64,000 bases of DNA, taken from the NCBI GenBank assembly GCA_963664405.1, contig OY761158.1, positions 3,296,001 through 3,360,000 of the forward strand, read 5' to 3'. Positions 29,946-35,950 of this stretch are shown here, one piece after another. A program made the position numbers and the translations under genes. This DNA comes from Thermoanaerobaculia bacterium. Lineage in GTDB: Bacteria > Acidobacteriota > Thermoanaerobaculia > Multivoradales > Multivoraceae. Position 1 is the stretch's first letter. Every line of letters begins with the position of its first letter. The notes below the pieces were generated by a model. That model saw only the letters and a list, made by a program, of their open reading frames with translations, ran no database searches and was not told where the DNA came from.

Positions 29946-30272
29946 ACCGACCTAGGGCTCCCCTTCTCCCGTTTCTTCAACCCCGCCTGCCTTCGCGGGC
30001 GGTTGGCACCTTCCGCTACAGAAGGCGCCATCGCCGCCAAGGTTTTGAAACCTGACCGACACGGCCCTCCTAAGTGTTGATTCCCATAAGGTTGTTCAGT
30101 TCGAGCCTGGAGTTAGGTGGTCGTCCGCCAAGAGCTGAATGGGCTCGATGTTTGTTGTAGAAGTGGAGATATCTGGGTAAGAGATCGGAGCGCTCGCGCG
30201 AGGAGTGGAAGGTGAAGGCGTAGGCCCACTCTCGTTGGAGCGTTTGGATGAATCTCTCGGCTTTCCCGTTGG

Positions 30273-30563
30273 GCTCAATGGTCGAATGCACCCGATACAG
30301 ATTGTGAGCAACGACGTTTTCGGGTAACCCATCCGTTCCACCCGCTGTTGGGGCGTGAGTACGAGCTGGCTCACTATCGCCAGTGCTGGGGCGAGGACCG
30401 GGTCTTCTACCTGGATGAATGCGAGGAGCTACGCTCCCTTCCAGCGCGTTGGACGAGTGCGGTGGCCGAGGACCCCGTGGTTGTCCTCTCCGCAGGCAGA
30501 TCGATGTACCGCTTGGCCGACCTGCTCGAGCTCGCCAAGCTGACCCGGGAGAGCGAGCGATGA
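30273..30563 (+). CDS. DUF5372 (Y4bD/Y4pK-like) protein; 5' end lies at the other end of the element (GTG 33607)
   Basis: RVTHPFHPL...WGEDRV...SLPARWT motif; frame open from the element end but no start codon before HPFHP. Confidence 0.7.
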   Translation, partial: AQWSNAPDTDCEQRRFRVTHPFHPLLGREYELAHYRQCWGEDRVFYLDECEELRSLPARWTSAVAEDPVVVLSAGRSMYRLADLLELAKLTRESER

Positions 30564-30597
30564 AGAGCTGCGCGAGGACGGTTGAGGGGCACCGTGC

Positions 30598-30759
30598 GTA
30601 AAGGAGATTATGCCGTGAATGTAATCACAATTATGTCGGGAAGAGTGCCAGAGTGTGACCAGGAGTGTAGAGATAGGCCAATTTAATGCACGATCTATCG
30701 GTACTCTCTTGGTGGACACCCCTTGACAGAGGATCCATGAAAGGCATAATTAGAATTAC
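30598..30759 (+). promoter_or_regulatory. Sigma70-like promoter with three operator-like repeats
   Basis: TTGACA (30723)-16 nt-CATAAT (30745); GTAA-N5-ATTATGYC at 30598, 30621 and inverted at 30743-30759. Confidence 0.65.
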
Positions 30760-30775
30760 ATTCCATGAGGAGACC

Positions 30776-31243
30776 ATGCCGCGACGCAGACCCGACCCGA
30801 AAGCCGAGGCCCTCCGTCAACGAGGGTGCCTTCATCCCCAGCCGGAGAAGGTCTCGGACGATTTGTTCACCTCGAGCGAGTTCTTCGACCCTCGAGACCT
30901 CGTGCAGGTCAAGTACGAGATGCTGCGCCGTGTCCGGGTGGACAGACACACGGTGAGCCGGAGCGCGGCAAGCTTCGGGTTGTCGCGCCCATCCTTCTAC
31001 CACGCCCAGGTGGTTTACGAAGAAGGCGGCCTACCCGCGTTGCTGCCAAGAAAGCCGGGGCCGCGCCGCGCCCACAAGCTATCCGAGGAGGTCGTCGAGG
31101 CCCTGCACGACAGGCTGGAGGGGGAGCCGGACGCAGATGCAACCGCCCTGGTCGAGTGGGTGCAGAAGCGCTTTGGCATCTCGATCCATCCGCGCAGCAT
31201 TGAGCGAGCCCTGGCTCGCCAGGAAAAAAAACGCCGGCCATGA
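30776..31243 (+). CDS. Helix-turn-helix protein of the recombinase element
   Basis: FFDPRDLVQVKYEMLR, FGLSRPSFY and KPGPRRAHKL; AGGAG RBS. Confidence 0.8.
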   Translation: MPRRRPDPKAEALRQRGCLHPQPEKVSDDLFTSSEFFDPRDLVQVKYEMLRRVRVDRHTVSRSAASFGLSRPSFYHAQVVYEEGGLPALLPRKPGPRRAHKLSEEVVEALHDRLEGEPDADATALVEWVQKRFGISIHPRSIERALARQEKKRRP

Positions 31244-31527
31244 GCGCGACACGCCAGCAGAACGCTCCGGCCCATGTCGCTCGCTACGAGGAGCTCCGAG
31301 GACATGCGGCGAAGCGGCAGCTCCTATCGGTTCGGTTCGGCTTGGCCGTTCTCCTGCGACAAGGGCTGGCCGCTTGGGTTGAACAGGGGTCCAAGATGCC
31401 CGCGCCGACCCCGGCACCGTCCGCCGAGATAGCCAGGCCGTCCGCACTGCCTCACGATACGAGCGCGGATCTGATCAACGTGCTGGCCGCCATGGCTCTC
31501 AGCCATCTAGAGGAGAACCACGCATGA
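31240..31527 (+). CDS. Hypothetical accessory protein of the recombinase element
   Basis: ATGA overlaps on both sides; RYEELR...GLAVLLRQGLAAW. Confidence 0.7.
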   Translation: MSATRQQNAPAHVARYEELRGHAAKRQLLSVRFGLAVLLRQGLAAWVEQGSKMPAPTPAPSAEIARPSALPHDTSADLINVLAAMALSHLEENHA

Positions 31528-33617
31528 GCGCAAGCGCCCACCAGAAGGTGACCCCAAGCCACCTGCGACGCGATGCGTACCTGTATGTTCGCCAGTCGAC
31601 CGTGCGCCAGGTGTTCGAGAATACGGAGAGCACGAGACGCCAGTACGCGTTGCGAGAGCGCGCGGTGGCGATGGGATGGCCCATCGAGCGAGTCATCGTG
31701 ATCGACTCGGACCTGGGTAAGTCCGCAGCTTCCAGCGTCGACCGCGAGGGCTTTCAGAAGCTCGTCGGCGAGGTCGGTATGGGCCGAGCCGGGATCGTTC
31801 TCGGGCTGGAGGTTTCGCGCCTGGCACGCAATAGCACGGACTGGCATCGACTGCTGGAGATCTGCGCGCTGACCGACACGCTGATCCTTGACGAGGACGG
31901 GGTCTACAGCCCGAGTGATTTCAACGATCGCCTTCTGCTCGGGCTCAAGGGCACGATGAGCGAGGCGGAGCTTCACGTGATGCGGGCTCGGCTGCGCGGA
32001 GGCATTCTGAATCAGGCGCGCCGAGGTGCGCTGCAAACCCCGTTACCCGTCGGCCTACTCTACGACCCGACCGGTAACGTGGTGCTCGATCCCGACGGCC
32101 AGGTCCAACGGAGCTTCGAGCACCTGTTCGAGACCTTCGAGCGTATGGGCTCGGCCTCGGCGACGGTCAAACACTTCCGCGAGCAAGGCTTGCGGTTTCC
32201 GCGCCGGCCGCGCTTCGGCCCCCACAAGGGAGAGCTGTTGTGGGAGTCGTTGCGCCACTGGCGCGTCCTGAGGGTGCTGCACAATCCCCGCTACGCTGGC
32301 GCTTTCTGTTTCGGTCGCACTCACACGCAAAGGCGCGTCAACGGCACCGTCGAGGTCAAGTCGCTTCCGCGGGAGGAGTGGACCGCGCTGTTGCTCGACG
32401 CGCACCCCGGATACATTCCCTGGGAACAATTCGAAGAAAACCTGAGACGACTACGAGACAACGCCCAGGCCCACGGCCGAGACCGGCGCAAGAGCCCACC
32501 GCGCGAGGGGCCAGCGCTGGTGCAGGGCTTGGTCCTCTGCGGCGTTTGTGGCCATCGGATGACGGTCCGCTATCACACGCGCAGGGGCACTCAGTGGCCC
32601 GAGTACGTCTGCCAGCGCGAGGGCATCGACACCGCGACACCCAAGTGTCAGTCGATCCCGGGCAAGGGCATCGATCGGGCCATCGGAGAGCTGCTTGTGG
32701 AGACGGTTACGCCTGTGACTCTGGAGGTTGCACTGAAAGTCCAGGTCGAGCTCGATGCACGGATCCACGAGGCCGATTCCCTGCGGCGCCAGCACGTACA
32801 GCGAGCTCGACAGGAGGCTGACTTGGCTCGGCGTCGCTTCATGGAGGTCGATCCGGGGAACCGCCTCGTGGTGGATGTCCTCGAGGCCGAGTGGAACGAG
32901 AGGCTGCGCGGGCTGCACGACGCACAGGAGGAGCTCGAGCAGCGCCGCCAGCAAGATCACCAACAGCTCGGCGACCAGCAACGAGAAGAGATCCTCGCCC
33001 TCGCCACCGACTTCCCGCGGTTGTGGAACGACCCGAAGACGCCTCAACGCGAGCGCAAGCGCATGGTGCGCTTGCTCATCGAGGACGTCACCTTGACGAA
33101 GGGCGACGAGATCGTTGTCGGTGTCCGCTTCCGAGGTGGCGCGACACGAAGTCTCAAACTGCCCATTCCGCCGACAGCATGGGAGTTACGCCAAACCTCG
33201 AAACAGGTCGTTGCCGAGATTGATACCCTGCTTGATGACTACACCGAGGCCGAGATTGCGAGCATCCTCAACGACAGAGGCCATCTCTCCGGAGAGGGCA
33301 AACGATTTCACGCCGGCATCGTCCGGCGACTGCGCCGTGACTACGACATCAAGAAGAGGTACGACCGACTGCGTGAGGGGGGAATGCTTACCCTCGAAGA
33401 GATGGCTGACCTACTGGGTGTCGCGACCCACACGGTGAAGACATGGCGCAACCACGGCCTGCTGCGTGCCCATGCCTACAACGACAAGAACGAGTGCCTC
33501 TACGAGCATCCCGGCGACGACCCGCCCGTCAAAATGCAGGGCCGAAAACTCTCGCAACGACGGCGCCGCCTCGACGTCGAACCGAACCCTACGGAGGAGG
33601 TGCAGTGTGAAGCGTAG
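31524..33617 (+). CDS. Large serine recombinase with zinc ribbon and C-terminal HTH
   Basis: YVRQST catalytic motif, EVSRLAR, NPRYAG, CGVCG...C..C ribbon, coiled coil, LEEMADLLGVATHTVKTW. Confidence 0.93.
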   Translation: MSASAHQKVTPSHLRRDAYLYVRQSTVRQVFENTESTRRQYALRERAVAMGWPIERVIVIDSDLGKSAASSVDREGFQKLVGEVGMGRAGIVLGLEVSRLARNSTDWHRLLEICALTDTLILDEDGVYSPSDFNDRLLLGLKGTMSEAELHVMRARLRGGILNQARRGALQTPLPVGLLYDPTGNVVLDPDGQVQRSFEHLFETFERMGSASATVKHFREQGLRFPRRPRFGPHKGELLWESLRHWRVLRVLHNPRYAGAFCFGRTHTQRRVNGTVEVKSLPREEWTALLLDAHPGYIPWEQFEENLRRLRDNAQAHGRDRRKSPPREGPALVQGLVLCGVCGHRMTVRYHTRRGTQWPEYVCQREGIDTATPKCQSIPGKGIDRAIGELLVETVTPVTLEVALKVQVELDARIHEADSLRRQHVQRARQEADLARRRFMEVDPGNRLVVDVLEAEWNERLRGLHDAQEELEQRRQQDHQQLGDQQREEILALATDFPRLWNDPKTPQRERKRMVRLLIEDVTLTKGDEIVVGVRFRGGATRSLKLPIPPTAWELRQTSKQVVAEIDTLLDDYTEAEIASILNDRGHLSGEGKRFHAGIVRRLRRDYDIKKRYDRLREGGMLTLEEMADLLGVATHTVKTWRNHGLLRAHAYNDKNECLYEHPGDDPPVKMQGRKLSQRRRRLDVEPNPTEEVQCEA

Positions 33618-34651
33618 CCCTTGGTGCGAGGTCGGTAGGGGCGTGTTCTGGAGTGCTTCAAACCGAGTTCCTGACCAAGATGGGCAAAGATCTAGGCGAC
33701 GTAGCAAGCTCCGTTGTCGGTCAAGATCCTCTGAATGGTAAACGCCTCGATCGGCGAAGAAAGCCATGACCCGCTGGAGAAAGGCTTGGGCGCTGGTCGA
33801 GCGCTCATTCTCGAGGATCTCCACGTAGGCCACCCGCGAGTTGTCATCGATGGCCACGTGGGCAAACTGCCAGCCGGCACCCTGACGGCGCCCCGATAGT
33901 CGCCCGTGATCCGGTGGCCCACGGAACGGATCTTGCCGAGCTTCTTGATGTCCAGGTGCACGAGCTCGCCCGCGTGCTGCTTCTCGTAGCGACGAACCGG
34001 TTCGGGCGGCGCCAGCTGAGGCAGTCGGCCCAAGTCCCAGCGACGCAACCAACGCGAAACGGTGGATCGGGGAATCCCTGTCTTCCAGGCGATCTCAGCC
34101 TGGCTCAGACGCTCCAGCCGAAGAGAGAGGATGCGTTCCCGATCCTTCTTACCCAGCCTCCGGGGACTCTGATGAGGGCAGGACGATCGATCCTGGAGAC
34201 CCTGGGAGCCCTCGGAGCGATAACGCCGCAACCACCGGTACCCCGATCGCGCGCTGAGGCCCTGGGCCTCAGCAGCCTTCCTGACCGTCCAACCTTCTTC
34301 CAACACTCTCTTCACCAGCAGGGCTCGACTCTTCGGGCAGCTTCGGGCATTCTTGTGCAGGTCCATCCCTTCACTCCTCTCCATGCGTTGTTTTCGTATC
34401 CAAAGCATGGCGGAAGTGGCTGGGATGGACCACCCCTCTTACTGAACAACCTTGTGAGCACTGACACCTAAGAGGAGTGGGTTAGTGGCCGCGGGGTTGG
34501 CTTCCGGTTAGCGCCGTTCGGGTCTTTTTCCCGGACACTCTAGAATCGCTCCGTGGGTCTCGACACATTCCTGCGCGAGGTTGTGCTCCTTCTGGCGTCG
34601 GCCGTGGTCGTGGTTCTGGCCAGCGCGAAGCGTGGAAGTCTGGCTTTCCTT

Positions 34652-35950
34652 CTACTGGGCCACTCGCCATGGCGAAGTACTCGGCCAGCCTTTGAGCTCC
34701 TCTCGGGCCCATTCCGAGCTCTGGTCGGTGTGGCACGAGGTACACGGACTCGGCATGCCGTGCTGCTCCGTCATCGATGGGGGTATGAACTTGAAAGTGT
34801 GACTGCGCACCTTGACCTCGCCGATCGTTTTGGCGATCTTCGGCATATGACAGGCGATGCACTGGCTTCCTTCACTTTCCGGAGCATGATGGGTGTGCTC
34901 TTCGAGCGTACCGCCGGGACCGTTCGGGGAGCGAGGGCCATGACACTGCAGGCACAGAGCATTGTCGGGTCTGGTCAGCTCCGCGCCGTGCTCGGTTCCG
35001 TGTACGTCGTGACAGGCGGAGCACTTCACTCCTCGCGTGTACATCACGCTGGAGACATAGTCGTTCCCCTGCATTCGATTCTTGTGGGCGGATCCGTCGG
35101 GCCAATGAGTGAACGACTCCTCGCCGAGATGGTGCTCCTCTAGCTTCCAGAAGTCACTGAGCCGATCGCCGGGCTCGTATCCGACCGGCCAGTCATAGTA
35201 CGTGCCGGCGATCGGGTTGGTGAGGGGCTGCCCCTGAGAGTGGCATTGAATGCAGACGTCGGCCGCTCGCACGTAGTCGAGCCGGGCTGGATTGGTGATG
35301 TTCTCGCTCTGCGGATCGGCGGCGTGCGCGCTCCCAGCGCCGTGGCACTTCTCACAGCCGACATTCCACTCGGTGACTTCTTTGGTCTCGATGTCGTAGT
35401 TGGTCGAATGACAGCCATCACAGAGAGGCCCGGTAGGCCTTTGCATCTGATCCGCGGGGTAGTGCTCCACCCACCAGTCGGTGCCCTCTCTGACGTAGTA
35501 GGTACGCCACTCCCGGTTGGTCACGTCCCACTGGGCGGGAAAGACGTAGTAATCGCTGCCGATCTTGGTGAAGTAGCGTTGTTTCCACTTGCTGCCGTAG
35601 GTGAAGACGATGTCTTCCTTACTGAAGGTCACCAACTCATGGGGTGTCAAAAAGTCGCCTTTGATGGCTTCGGGGCGCTCCTTGACATCTTGCAGGATGT
35701 TCGCCATCAGAGTGTTTTTCCAGCGGCTATAGAGGCTCCTGTGACAGGACCCGCAGGCCTCCGAGCCGACAAAAGCCTTGCCGGTATCTTCGGCAGGAGG
35801 CTCGACCTGCCCGGCAGCCGGAACTTGGAGAACGATCAATGCGAGAACGGCTGCGTACCCCAGCTTCGCGAGGGGTCGGAGCCGTAGGCTGTCCCGTCGC
35901 CCTCGGGTCTCGAGGCCGGCTCTTCTCCTGTGCCTGAATGAGCATCGCAT
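34652..35950 (-). CDS. Multiheme cytochrome c (8 CxxCH motifs)
   Basis: CGSCH, CDGCH, CEKCH, CIQCH, CSACH, CLQCH, CIACH and CTSCH; signal-like N-terminus. Confidence 0.88.
   Translation of the reverse strand: MRCSFRHRRRAGLETRGRRDSLRLRPLAKLGYAAVLALIVLQVPAAGQVEPPAEDTGKAFVGSEACGSCHRSLYSRWKNTLMANILQDVKERPEAIKGDFLTPHELVTFSKEDIVFTYGSKWKQRYFTKIGSDYYVFPAQWDVTNREWRTYYVREGTDWWVEHYPADQMQRPTGPLCDGCHSTNYDIETKEVTEWNVGCEKCHGAGSAHAADPQSENITNPARLDYVRAADVCIQCHSQGQPLTNPIAGTYYDWPVGYEPGDRLSDFWKLEEHHLGEESFTHWPDGSAHKNRMQGNDYVSSVMYTRGVKCSACHDVHGTEHGAELTRPDNALCLQCHGPRSPNGPGGTLEEHTHHAPESEGSQCIACHMPKIAKTIGEVKVRSHTFKFIPPSMTEQHGMPSPCTSCHTDQSSEWAREELKGWPSTSPWRVAQ

Follow-up and report, generated by a model that had tools for sequence, protein, structure and literature searches.

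How can a mobile element keep an intact gene that has no start codon, and from which form of the DNA might such a gene be translated? The question is raised by a locus of a Thermoanaerobaculia bacterium whose genome is a single contig of 6.78 Mb (GCA_963664405.1, contig OY761158.1). The 64,000 nt at positions 3,296,001-3,360,000 of the forward strand, hereafter called the window, were analysed, and coordinates in the text are window positions. At 30269-33622 the window contains a 3.35-kb element resembling an insertion sequence (IS), which carries four genes and no cargo; they encode a protein with the domain DUF5372, a helix-turn-helix (HTH) protein, a small protein designated ORF3 and a 697-aa large serine recombinase (LSR). 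The window copy is one of five in this genome, which have 99-100% identity and differing flanks. Judged from its sequence and from those of related loci, the element very probably contains a split-gene switch, in which DUF5372 becomes translatable only when the two ends of the element are joined.

The split DUF5372 gene

The frame at the left end of the element matches PF17342 (DUF5372) with an E-value of 1.9e-20 and 73.1 bits against a cut-off of 25, over profile positions 1-73 of 78. It is open from an in-frame TGA in the flank (30249-30251) to a TGA at 30561-30563, and there is no ATG, GTG or TTG before the conserved motif HPFHP (30331-30345); the first such codon is a TTG at 30348, after HPFHP. 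An initial annotation of this DNA had described the frame as startless, with the TGA at 30249 in the flank, and had placed a ribosome-binding sequence at the right end, 6 nt before a GTG at 33607 and overlapping the C-terminus of the recombinase. Direct reading bears out both statements: GGAGGAGG stands at 33593-33600, the GTG at 33607-33609 and the recombinase stop TAG at 33615-33617. If the two ends are joined (...CCT/TGG...), M-K-R-S-P from the right end is continued by W-A-Q-W-S-N-A-P-D... from the left end, and the 5 + 97 codons make one frame of 102, the same 102-aa product that the initial annotation had predicted. The crossover dinucleotide TT falls in codons 5-6 of this frame. The attachment site thus lies inside a coding sequence, and the two states of the DNA encode different products. 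The parts concerned are as follows.

30269-30270, no strand: left crossover dinucleotide TT, the sole flanking letters common to the five genomic copies
30271-30292, plus strand: P' arm of attP, with the inner motif GGGCT, a 16-nt spacer region and the outer motif TGCACC; 16 nt separate TGCA and TT in either arm
30270-30563, plus strand: body of the DUF5372 gene (PF17342), 97 codons and stop, without a start codon of its own
33593-33600, plus strand: Shine-Dalgarno sequence GGAGGAGG, 6 nt 5' of the junction start codon, by direct reading
33599-33620, plus strand: P arm of attP, with the outer motif GGTGCA, a spacer and the inner motif AGCCC, mirroring the left arm
33607-33621, plus strand: start of the split gene, GTG and four codons (M-K-R-S-P), overlapping the last LSR codons and stop
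33621-33622, no strand: right crossover dinucleotide TT, from the comparison of shared flanks and from site geometry

The P' arm at 30271-30292 therefore has a double role, as it also codes for the DUF5372 residues W-A-Q-W-S-N-A-P.

Ends of the element and the crossover

Where exactly do the two ends lie? The five copies share just ...GTAGCCC-TT and TT-GGGCTCAATGG, and the letters that follow the right-hand TT are GG, GG, CT, GT and CT. Since TT is all that their flanks have in common, the crossover is taken to be the dinucleotide TT at 30269-30270 and 33621-33622, which is the expectation for a serine recombinase. The initial annotation had bounded the element by TTGG repeats. The repeat is TT, since flanking by TTGG is limited to the window copy; the junction sequence is left unchanged by this correction. 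A 4-bp target duplication TTGG, made by an element of the DDE type, was also considered and rejected, because the five copies share TT only and the reconstructed empty sites agree with this. What remains is a crossover of 2 bp that element and target have in common, with neither a longer target duplication nor terminal inverted repeats of the DDE type, as in other LSR elements. When joined, the ends make up an imperfect palindrome, GGTGCA-(N)-AGCCC-TT-GGGCT-(N)-TGCACC, with TGCA exactly 16 nt from TT on each side.

The element interrupts a minus-strand transposase gene of the IS481 family (LZ_Tnp_IS481, rve_3). Its removal in silico restores the continuous transposase motif ...RPYRPRT-NGKAERF..., with SRTRPYRPRTNGKAERFIQT as the reconstructed empty site, and for this reason the boundaries are considered exact. 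Two of the genomic copies, L001 and L003, have only 1 difference in 3354 positions, so that its movement in this form must be recent. In none of the five copies has the startless DUF5372 frame been disrupted.

The flanks of two further copies deserve a remark. One (L002, G000:C1:2342023-2345461) has the left flank of the window copy, and its right flank diverges 7 nt past TTGG; the other (L004, 3059613-3062973) has the left flank of L003 and a different right flank. These flanks may be chimeras that arose when copies recombined, or the elements may have inserted into divergent IS copies. In addition, five metagenome contigs of 3.3-3.5 kb (L008, L014, L032, L056 and L084) consist of the element alone. 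All of them start at most 2 nt from the crossover TT; four end at the crossover TT or 1 nt past it, and L032 continues for ~60 nt into the flank. They look like collapsed multi-copy repeats, which would mark identical ends independently.

Conservation across the family

Is the arrangement of the window copy found in its relatives? A protein search with DUF5372 gave 317 homologous clusters, and a scan limited to one genome per species confirmed 226 DUF5372 loci. They are distributed over Planctomycetota, Myxococcota, Gamma-, Beta- and Alphaproteobacteria, Spirochaetia, Acidobacteriota, Actinomycetota, Chloroflexota and other phyla, and DUF5372 is also present on 130 plasmid records, rhizobial symbiosis plasmids among them. 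The best 80 of the 226 loci were used for comparison, and the exact HPFHP motif is found in 74 of these. From them a set of 48 loci was made, namely 47 HPFHP homologues in which an LSR frame ends 2.8-3.7 kb downstream, and the window copy. Element ends were then placed by site geometry alone, that is, by TGCA 16 nt from a dinucleotide common to both ends together with complementarity of the inner arms, and coding information was not used. An earlier placement by the best arm complementarity over 22 nt was noisy, with ~12/22 matches and many false optima, and was replaced by the TGCA-N16 geometry. The geometry TGCA-N16-NN-N16-TGCA is found in 43 of the 48 loci (42 homologues and the window copy), in keeping with the ~50-bp attP of imperfect dyad symmetry that is characteristic of LSRs. 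Among the 41 canonical loci (40 homologues and the window copy), the crossover is TT in 36.

With the ends fixed in this manner, an ATG or GTG stands exactly 14 nt before the crossover in 42 of the 43 geometry-placed loci, and in 41 of them the frame that it begins is in phase with DUF5372 and open through HPFHP, with ATG as the start in 21 loci and GTG in 20. The initial annotation had proposed the frame across the junction in homologues as a check on its idea, and the result comes out clearly in favour. A Shine-Dalgarno core (GGAG, GAGG or AGGA) precedes the start in 40 of the 41 canonical loci. In the 36 unique junctions stops number 0 in frame 0, 31 in frame +1 and 32 in frame +2, and the distance from TT to HPFHP is 58, 61 or 64 nt, so that its length changes by whole codons. 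Both cultured strains, that with pNGR234a and Sinorhizobium meliloti M270, conform, and a locus with the variant CGCA (L078) conforms by eye.

It may be asked whether the right end is conserved for another reason. The possibility that it is maintained as the C-terminus of the LSR was rejected: the right-end motif GAGGTGCAGTRTG is read as ...EVQ(C/Y)EA-stop in some homologues and in another frame as ...GGAV-stop in others, and in still others the LSR stops before it. Offsets between the junction start and the stop of the LSR are -8 for 26 loci, -1 for 9 and +11 for 4, some LSRs thus terminating 11 nt before the junction start. In the 9 loci with offset -1, the LSR stop and the junction ATG overlap as ATGA, a style of coupling seen also at the two earlier gene boundaries of the operon.

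The recombination site offers a second reason. Because GGTGCA of the right-end motif has its mirror image, TGCACC, in the left arm, it is to be counted as part of the site. The geometry of the site would by itself account for a constant spacing that preserves the frame, but not for a start codon, a ribosome-binding site, an open frame or the lack of an internal start. In the unique junctions G at -24 is invariant (35/35) and A at -23 nearly so (34/35), as parts of GAGG, and the mirror positions in the other arm vary; the letter at -14 is exclusively A or G. In the frame itself, third-position variation occurs next to invariant residues, and the split frame is for this reason considered to be under purifying selection.

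Modelled structure of DUF5372 and its predicted contact with the recombinase

What kind of protein would be made from the joined ends? An AlphaFold2 (AF2) model of DUF5372, with a predicted local distance difference test score (pLDDT) of 78.8, begins with 12 disordered residues, the part that hosts the recombination site, and continues as an SH3-like barrel followed by a C-terminal helix. A Foldseek search of the PDB with this fold returned nothing at E <= 0.001. The best match (E 5.3e-03) was to SH3-like barrels of the ribosomal protein eS4, and the closest folds, the barrels of eS4 and NdhS with template-modelling (TM) scores of ~0.4, give no functional lead.

A model of the complex between LSR and DUF5372 scores 0.70, and the best of 3 controls scores 0.00; the mark of 0.70 is reached by 58 of 80 solved complexes and by 2 of 110 mismatched pairs, rates that are approximate here owing to the custom alignments. 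The runs share at least 62% of contacts, and the pLDDT of the partner is at least 69. In the predicted interface, residues 338-343, 394-414 and 480-543 of the LSR face residues 20-25 of DUF5372, which include the invariant HPFHP, and residues 67-94 in its C-terminal part. The model thereby puts DUF5372 at the coiled-coil base of the LSR, the region bound by known directionality factors. Papers on large serine integrases place the control of direction at the same coiled-coil junction (PMC11795197, PMC5814800, PMC11722253). From these models it seems rather probable that DUF5372 binds the LSR.

A possible mechanism

How might the switch operate? The LSR would exchange strands at TT in the centre of the imperfect palindrome TGCA-N16-TT-N16-TGCA, and an intact attP would exist only with both ends joined. 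In the chromosomal state the operon would yield the HTH protein, ORF3 and LSR, and the startless body of DUF5372 would stay untranslated. The LSR, alone or with ORF3 or the HTH protein, would excise the element. In the circle, or in any head-to-tail form, DUF5372 would become the fourth, translationally coupled cistron of an operon HTH-ORF3-LSR-DUF5372. The initial annotation had likewise made DUF5372 the last gene of the operon on the circle, and this is fitted by the ATGA overlaps between HTH gene and ORF3, between ORF3 and LSR, and between LSR and the junction ATG in 9 of 41 loci. DUF5372 would then bias the LSR toward insertion of the circle or block immediate re-excision, and insertion would split the DUF5372 gene again, so that the state of the DNA itself would set the direction of the enzyme.

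The last steps are the least secure. That DUF5372 acts in this direction, promoting insertion or blocking re-excision, is put forward tentatively and falls short of an even chance. An insertion bias is favoured because an excision factor made only after excision would block the reinsertion of its own circle. By the same line of thought DUF5372 could be a 'reverse' directionality factor, its synthesis being wired directly to the state of the DNA, and the element would sense without an external signal whether it is in or out; we regard this as conceivable and would sooner doubt it than assume it.

Weighing the alternatives

A number of points weigh against a DUF5372 gene that is translated only from the joined ends and favours insertion, and they are best taken together with the alternatives to which they belong. 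The alternative that survives best accepts the split gene as real and makes its product a classical recombination directionality factor (RDF), which promotes excision and acts in trans on other integrated copies in a burst of excision. The predicted interface coincides with the hotspot of excision-promoting RDFs, and five genomic copies are available as targets. A protein at this hotspot classically promotes excision, which fits poorly with synthesis from the circle only. A classical RDF stimulates attL x attR, yet it inhibits attP x attB, so that such a factor made from the circle would hinder reinsertion and favour loss of the circle, and the first excision would be left unexplained. On balance we hold this alternative to be unlikely.

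Could DUF5372 be translated from the chromosome as well? In that case a weak or non-canonical internal start would be used, such as a Leu codon TTG 17 residues before HPFHP, a Val codon GTG just before THPFHP or a non-standard codon, and the Shine-Dalgarno sequence with ATG or GTG at the right end would merely be a recombinase-binding site. Gene callers do use such starts: the annotation begins 17 residues before HPFHP in 52 of 120 database homologues and 2 residues before it in 24 of 120, and RefSeq starts DUF5372 of Sinorhizobium fredii NGR234 (pNGR234a) at an internal GTG. The Val codon directly before THPFHP is GTG in 14 of the 41 loci, and GTG or TTG occurs further upstream in 5 of 41, so that weak internal starts are possible in part of the family. 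The right-end motif, moreover, overlaps the symmetric GGTGCA/TGCACC motif of the site, and since the recombinase-binding site takes in much of the junction, some of the conservation there, and the constant spacing, would be expected without any coding role. Against this, the window element has TGG and GTA at the two positions where gene callers begin, and yet it exists in five near-identical copies, two of which differ by one base. The initial annotation had named an internal start upstream of HPFHP in homologues as the finding that would speak against it; ATG between the crossover and HPFHP is present in 0 of 41 loci, and in 21 of the 41 this interval is free of ATG, GTG and TTG alike. In other members the Val codon is GTA, GTC, ATA or ATT, and the Phe and Arg codons that precede it differ at third positions only, as under constraint on the protein, from which it follows that translation begins further upstream. 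The codon at -14, for its part, is only ATG (21) or GTG (20); the GA of GAGG is kept where its mirror arm is not; and the junction start overlaps the LSR stop as ATGA in 9 loci. Translation from an internal start is thus improbable, and the present annotations of DUF5372 genes with internal start codons are probably wrong.

That the startless DUF5372 is a decaying remnant joined in frame by coincidence is hardly credible, for, although the frame lacks a start and the host IS481 copy is itself spread across several frames, the DUF5372 frame is intact in five copies and, among the 43 loci with placed ends, which come from many phyla, open in 41, and third-position variation with invariant residues speaks for purifying selection.

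The switch itself is also confronted with exceptions and with an unsuccessful search for its products. In the set of 48 loci, L073 has CAG where the start is expected, L053 has a shift of 1 nt, and the ends of four loci (L060, L067, L076 and L083) could not be placed; besides, the counts come from homologous loci and are thus not independent events. The element is present in seven runs, and Logan contigs from four of these, inspected over 30150-33750, contain no joint from the right to the left end, although contigs cannot show rare forms; their loose ends at 33622-33635 are the flanks of other genomic copies. A narrow degenerate motif for the junction had 0 matches in public metagenome contigs. 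A broader one had 3, all by chance, with neither a recombinase upstream nor DUF5372 downstream, and the broad motif had 0 matches in viral contigs. Intact junctions number 0 among the 49 right-end motifs of the compared loci, and 0 of the 120 database homologues listed have an N-terminus of the junction type (25 residues before HPFHP). Thus, the on/off switch of the initial annotation, with the protein made from the circle only, is supported by the sequence evidence of the whole family, but no circle junction was found in the data searched.

Other genes and the control region

The rest of the element and its immediate flanks are composed of the following parts.

30070-30268, minus strand: left flank, 3' portion of the target, the IS481-family transposase gene that the element interrupts (NGKAERF...); rve_3, E 9.1e-13
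30564-30775, plus strand: putative control region with a promoter-like site and an inverted repeat, its function being suggested by sequence
30776-31243, plus strand: HTH protein, 155 aa, with a helix-turn-helix of the transposase type; HTH_32, E 1.1e-08, and HTH_29 and HTH_28
31240-31527, plus strand: ORF3, 95 aa, its stop overlapping the LSR start as ATGA
31524-33617, plus strand: LSR, 697 aa, with Resolvase, Recombinase and Zn_ribbon_recom matches
33623-34408, minus strand: right flank, 5' portion of the same IS481-family transposase gene; LZ_Tnp_IS481, E 1.1e-22

All three domains that define an LSR are present in the recombinase, namely PF00239 Resolvase (E 2.5e-17), PF07508 Recombinase (E 1.9e-11) and PF13408 Zn_ribbon_recom (E 2.2e-07), the last being the zinc-ribbon domain with its coiled-coil insert. 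S25 in the motif YVRQS is invariant in 28 sequences, and we take it to be the catalytic serine. A C-terminal extension of the LSR (residues 621-660; 33384-33503) has a weak match to HTH_17 below the cut-off (E 5.5e-05) and a borderline one to MerR_1, barely above it (E 2.2e-04); a helix-turn-helix of this type is otherwise seen in excisionases. The gene for the HTH protein ends in an ATGA overlap with the start of ORF3, as ORF3 does with the LSR. ORF3 has no match in Pfam or NCBIfam even at E up to 5, and its gene occupies the same place in pNGR234a and in a Burkholderia plasmid.

Upstream of the HTH gene, and facing it, lies a promoter-like site TTGACA-16-CATAAT (30723-30750), which matches at 11 of 12 positions, where shuffled sequences average 0.4 sites. 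A 19-nt inverted repeat (30617-30635 and 30745-30763) is 84% complementary, and its second arm overlaps the -10 of this site. In the same region a 17-nt direct repeat of the ribosome-binding region of the HTH gene is found at 30602-30618 and 30768-30784, the upstream copy heading an open reading frame (ORF) of two codons. The inverted and direct repeats between 30602 and 30784 could be operators for the HTH protein. There is also a weaker promoter-like site on the minus strand, GTCACA-18-CATAAT (30630-30659; 9 of 12), which points leftwards and would yield an RNA that is antisense to DUF5372 and exits through the left end.

Outside the element, the 5' part of the IS481 transposase lies across at least 2 overlapping minus-strand frames (ORFs 33692-34408 and 33411-34052); this host copy may already be defective or degenerate, or may use a frameshift. 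Adjoining the IS, a minus-strand ORF of 432 aa (34652-35950) contains many CxxCH motifs and is likely to be a multihaem cytochrome c.

Targets of insertion

Into what do these elements insert? The family has 62 distinct left flanks. With multiple copies, mobility genes alone and many sites occupied in its family, the element is an insertion sequence in the wide sense. In 44 of the 62 flanks the opposite strand encodes [N/K]xxxE beginning exactly at the crossover, a motif that contains the catalytic glutamate in rve-type DDE transposases of the IS481, IS21 and IS3 types. Another 3 contain the motif M-[E/Q]-[A/S]-T(-G) resembling IS110, in a subfamily with AT as the crossover, and 4, from Spirochaetia genomes, contain the HNH-like motif K-R-Q-V-W-Q-R-D-G-G; in the other 11 the targets are different or ambiguous. 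When empty sites were reconstructed for 35 loci by joining the flanks through one dinucleotide, a continuous protein sequence resulted on the opposite strand, and the rve-type transposase motif was restored without a gap in 22 of the 35; the ends placed by site geometry are thereby confirmed independently. As the flanks encode conserved catalytic motifs of other mobile elements, the family inserts into the genes of such elements and inactivates them. In S. meliloti M270 (L093) and Streptomyces sp. NBC_01727 (L094) an IS21-like istB on the opposite strand directly borders the left end from outside, in agreement with insertion into istA; in Streptomyces the copy has no recombinase gene.

What would follow if these considerations are correct? 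DUF5372, a domain of unknown function distributed in many phyla, gains a concrete role that can be tested. LSRs are prized tools of genome engineering for which the control of direction is a live problem, and a small cofactor coupled to the state of the DNA is a candidate part as well as a design principle; if the reading holds, it would be a natural small protein that controls the direction of an LSR. A 'reverse' factor combined with targeting of transposase motifs would, if both are true, define an undescribed class of self-regulating hyperparasitic IS.

Comparison with known systems

The nearest relative is in a cultured strain. Plasmid pNGR234a of S. fredii NGR234 carries the same four genes (DUF5372, HTH protein, small ORF and a recombinase of 694 aa), the same end motifs and an in-frame junction. 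Its genes are annotated as separate hypotheticals, with DUF5372 starting from the internal GTG. They are presumably the gene sets y4bA-y4bD and y4pH-y4pK. No description of DUF5372, of the y4b and y4p genes of NGR234 or of the split arrangement was found in open-access papers and bioRxiv.

Among directionality factors, the RDFs of phiC31 (gp3), TG1 and Bxb1 and SprB of SPbeta resemble DUF5372 in that its predicted contact with the LSR falls at the published RDF site. DUF5372, however, has no sequence similarity to them and no significant similarity of fold to a solved structure. An RDF can be made from the integrated element, whereas integrated DUF5372 has no start codon and its synthesis would be tied to the excised state.

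Attachment sites inside genes have a precedent in integration-dependent immunity of mycobacteriophages, BPs and its relatives, where the attachment site lies within a coding sequence (PMC4557955). The likeness to the present element is that attP is inside a gene and that integrated and free forms encode different products. In phages of the BPs type integration cuts off the 3' end of the repressor gene, which leads to a shorter, active protein, and both forms are expressed. Here, in contrast, integration removes the 5' initiation region, so that the integrated form should give no protein, and the enzyme is a serine recombinase. The DUF5372 product, moreover, contains no HTH and is not a C-terminally tagged repressor like that of BPs.

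Units of promoter and gene that are assembled by circularisation are known too. Tn4451 is reportedly an LSR transposon with multiple copies, multiple targets and a 2-bp crossover. Units of this kind are described for Tn4451 with its large resolvase TnpX (Lyras & Rood 2000, as listed in PMC13023037), for ICEclc (Pcirc) and for ICEKp1 (P3'end) (PMC13023037). In Tn4451/Tn4453, ICEclc and ICEKp1, as here, the joining of ends by a site-specific recombinase signals the expression of a gene for recombination. The joining assembles a promoter in elements of the Tn4451 type, but a reading frame here, in which a ribosome-binding site, a start and five codons are added to 97 codons. The sole strong promoter-like site of the present element is internal (30723-30750) and should drive HTH-ORF3-LSR in both states, so that there is no sign of a junction promoter, and the regulated product is a small accessory protein here and the recombinase in the Tn4451 type. 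Junction promoters and attP within a gene are thus already known; what differs here is that the reading frame itself is assembled, that it is the frame of an accessory protein of an LSR, and that the arrangement is conserved throughout the family.

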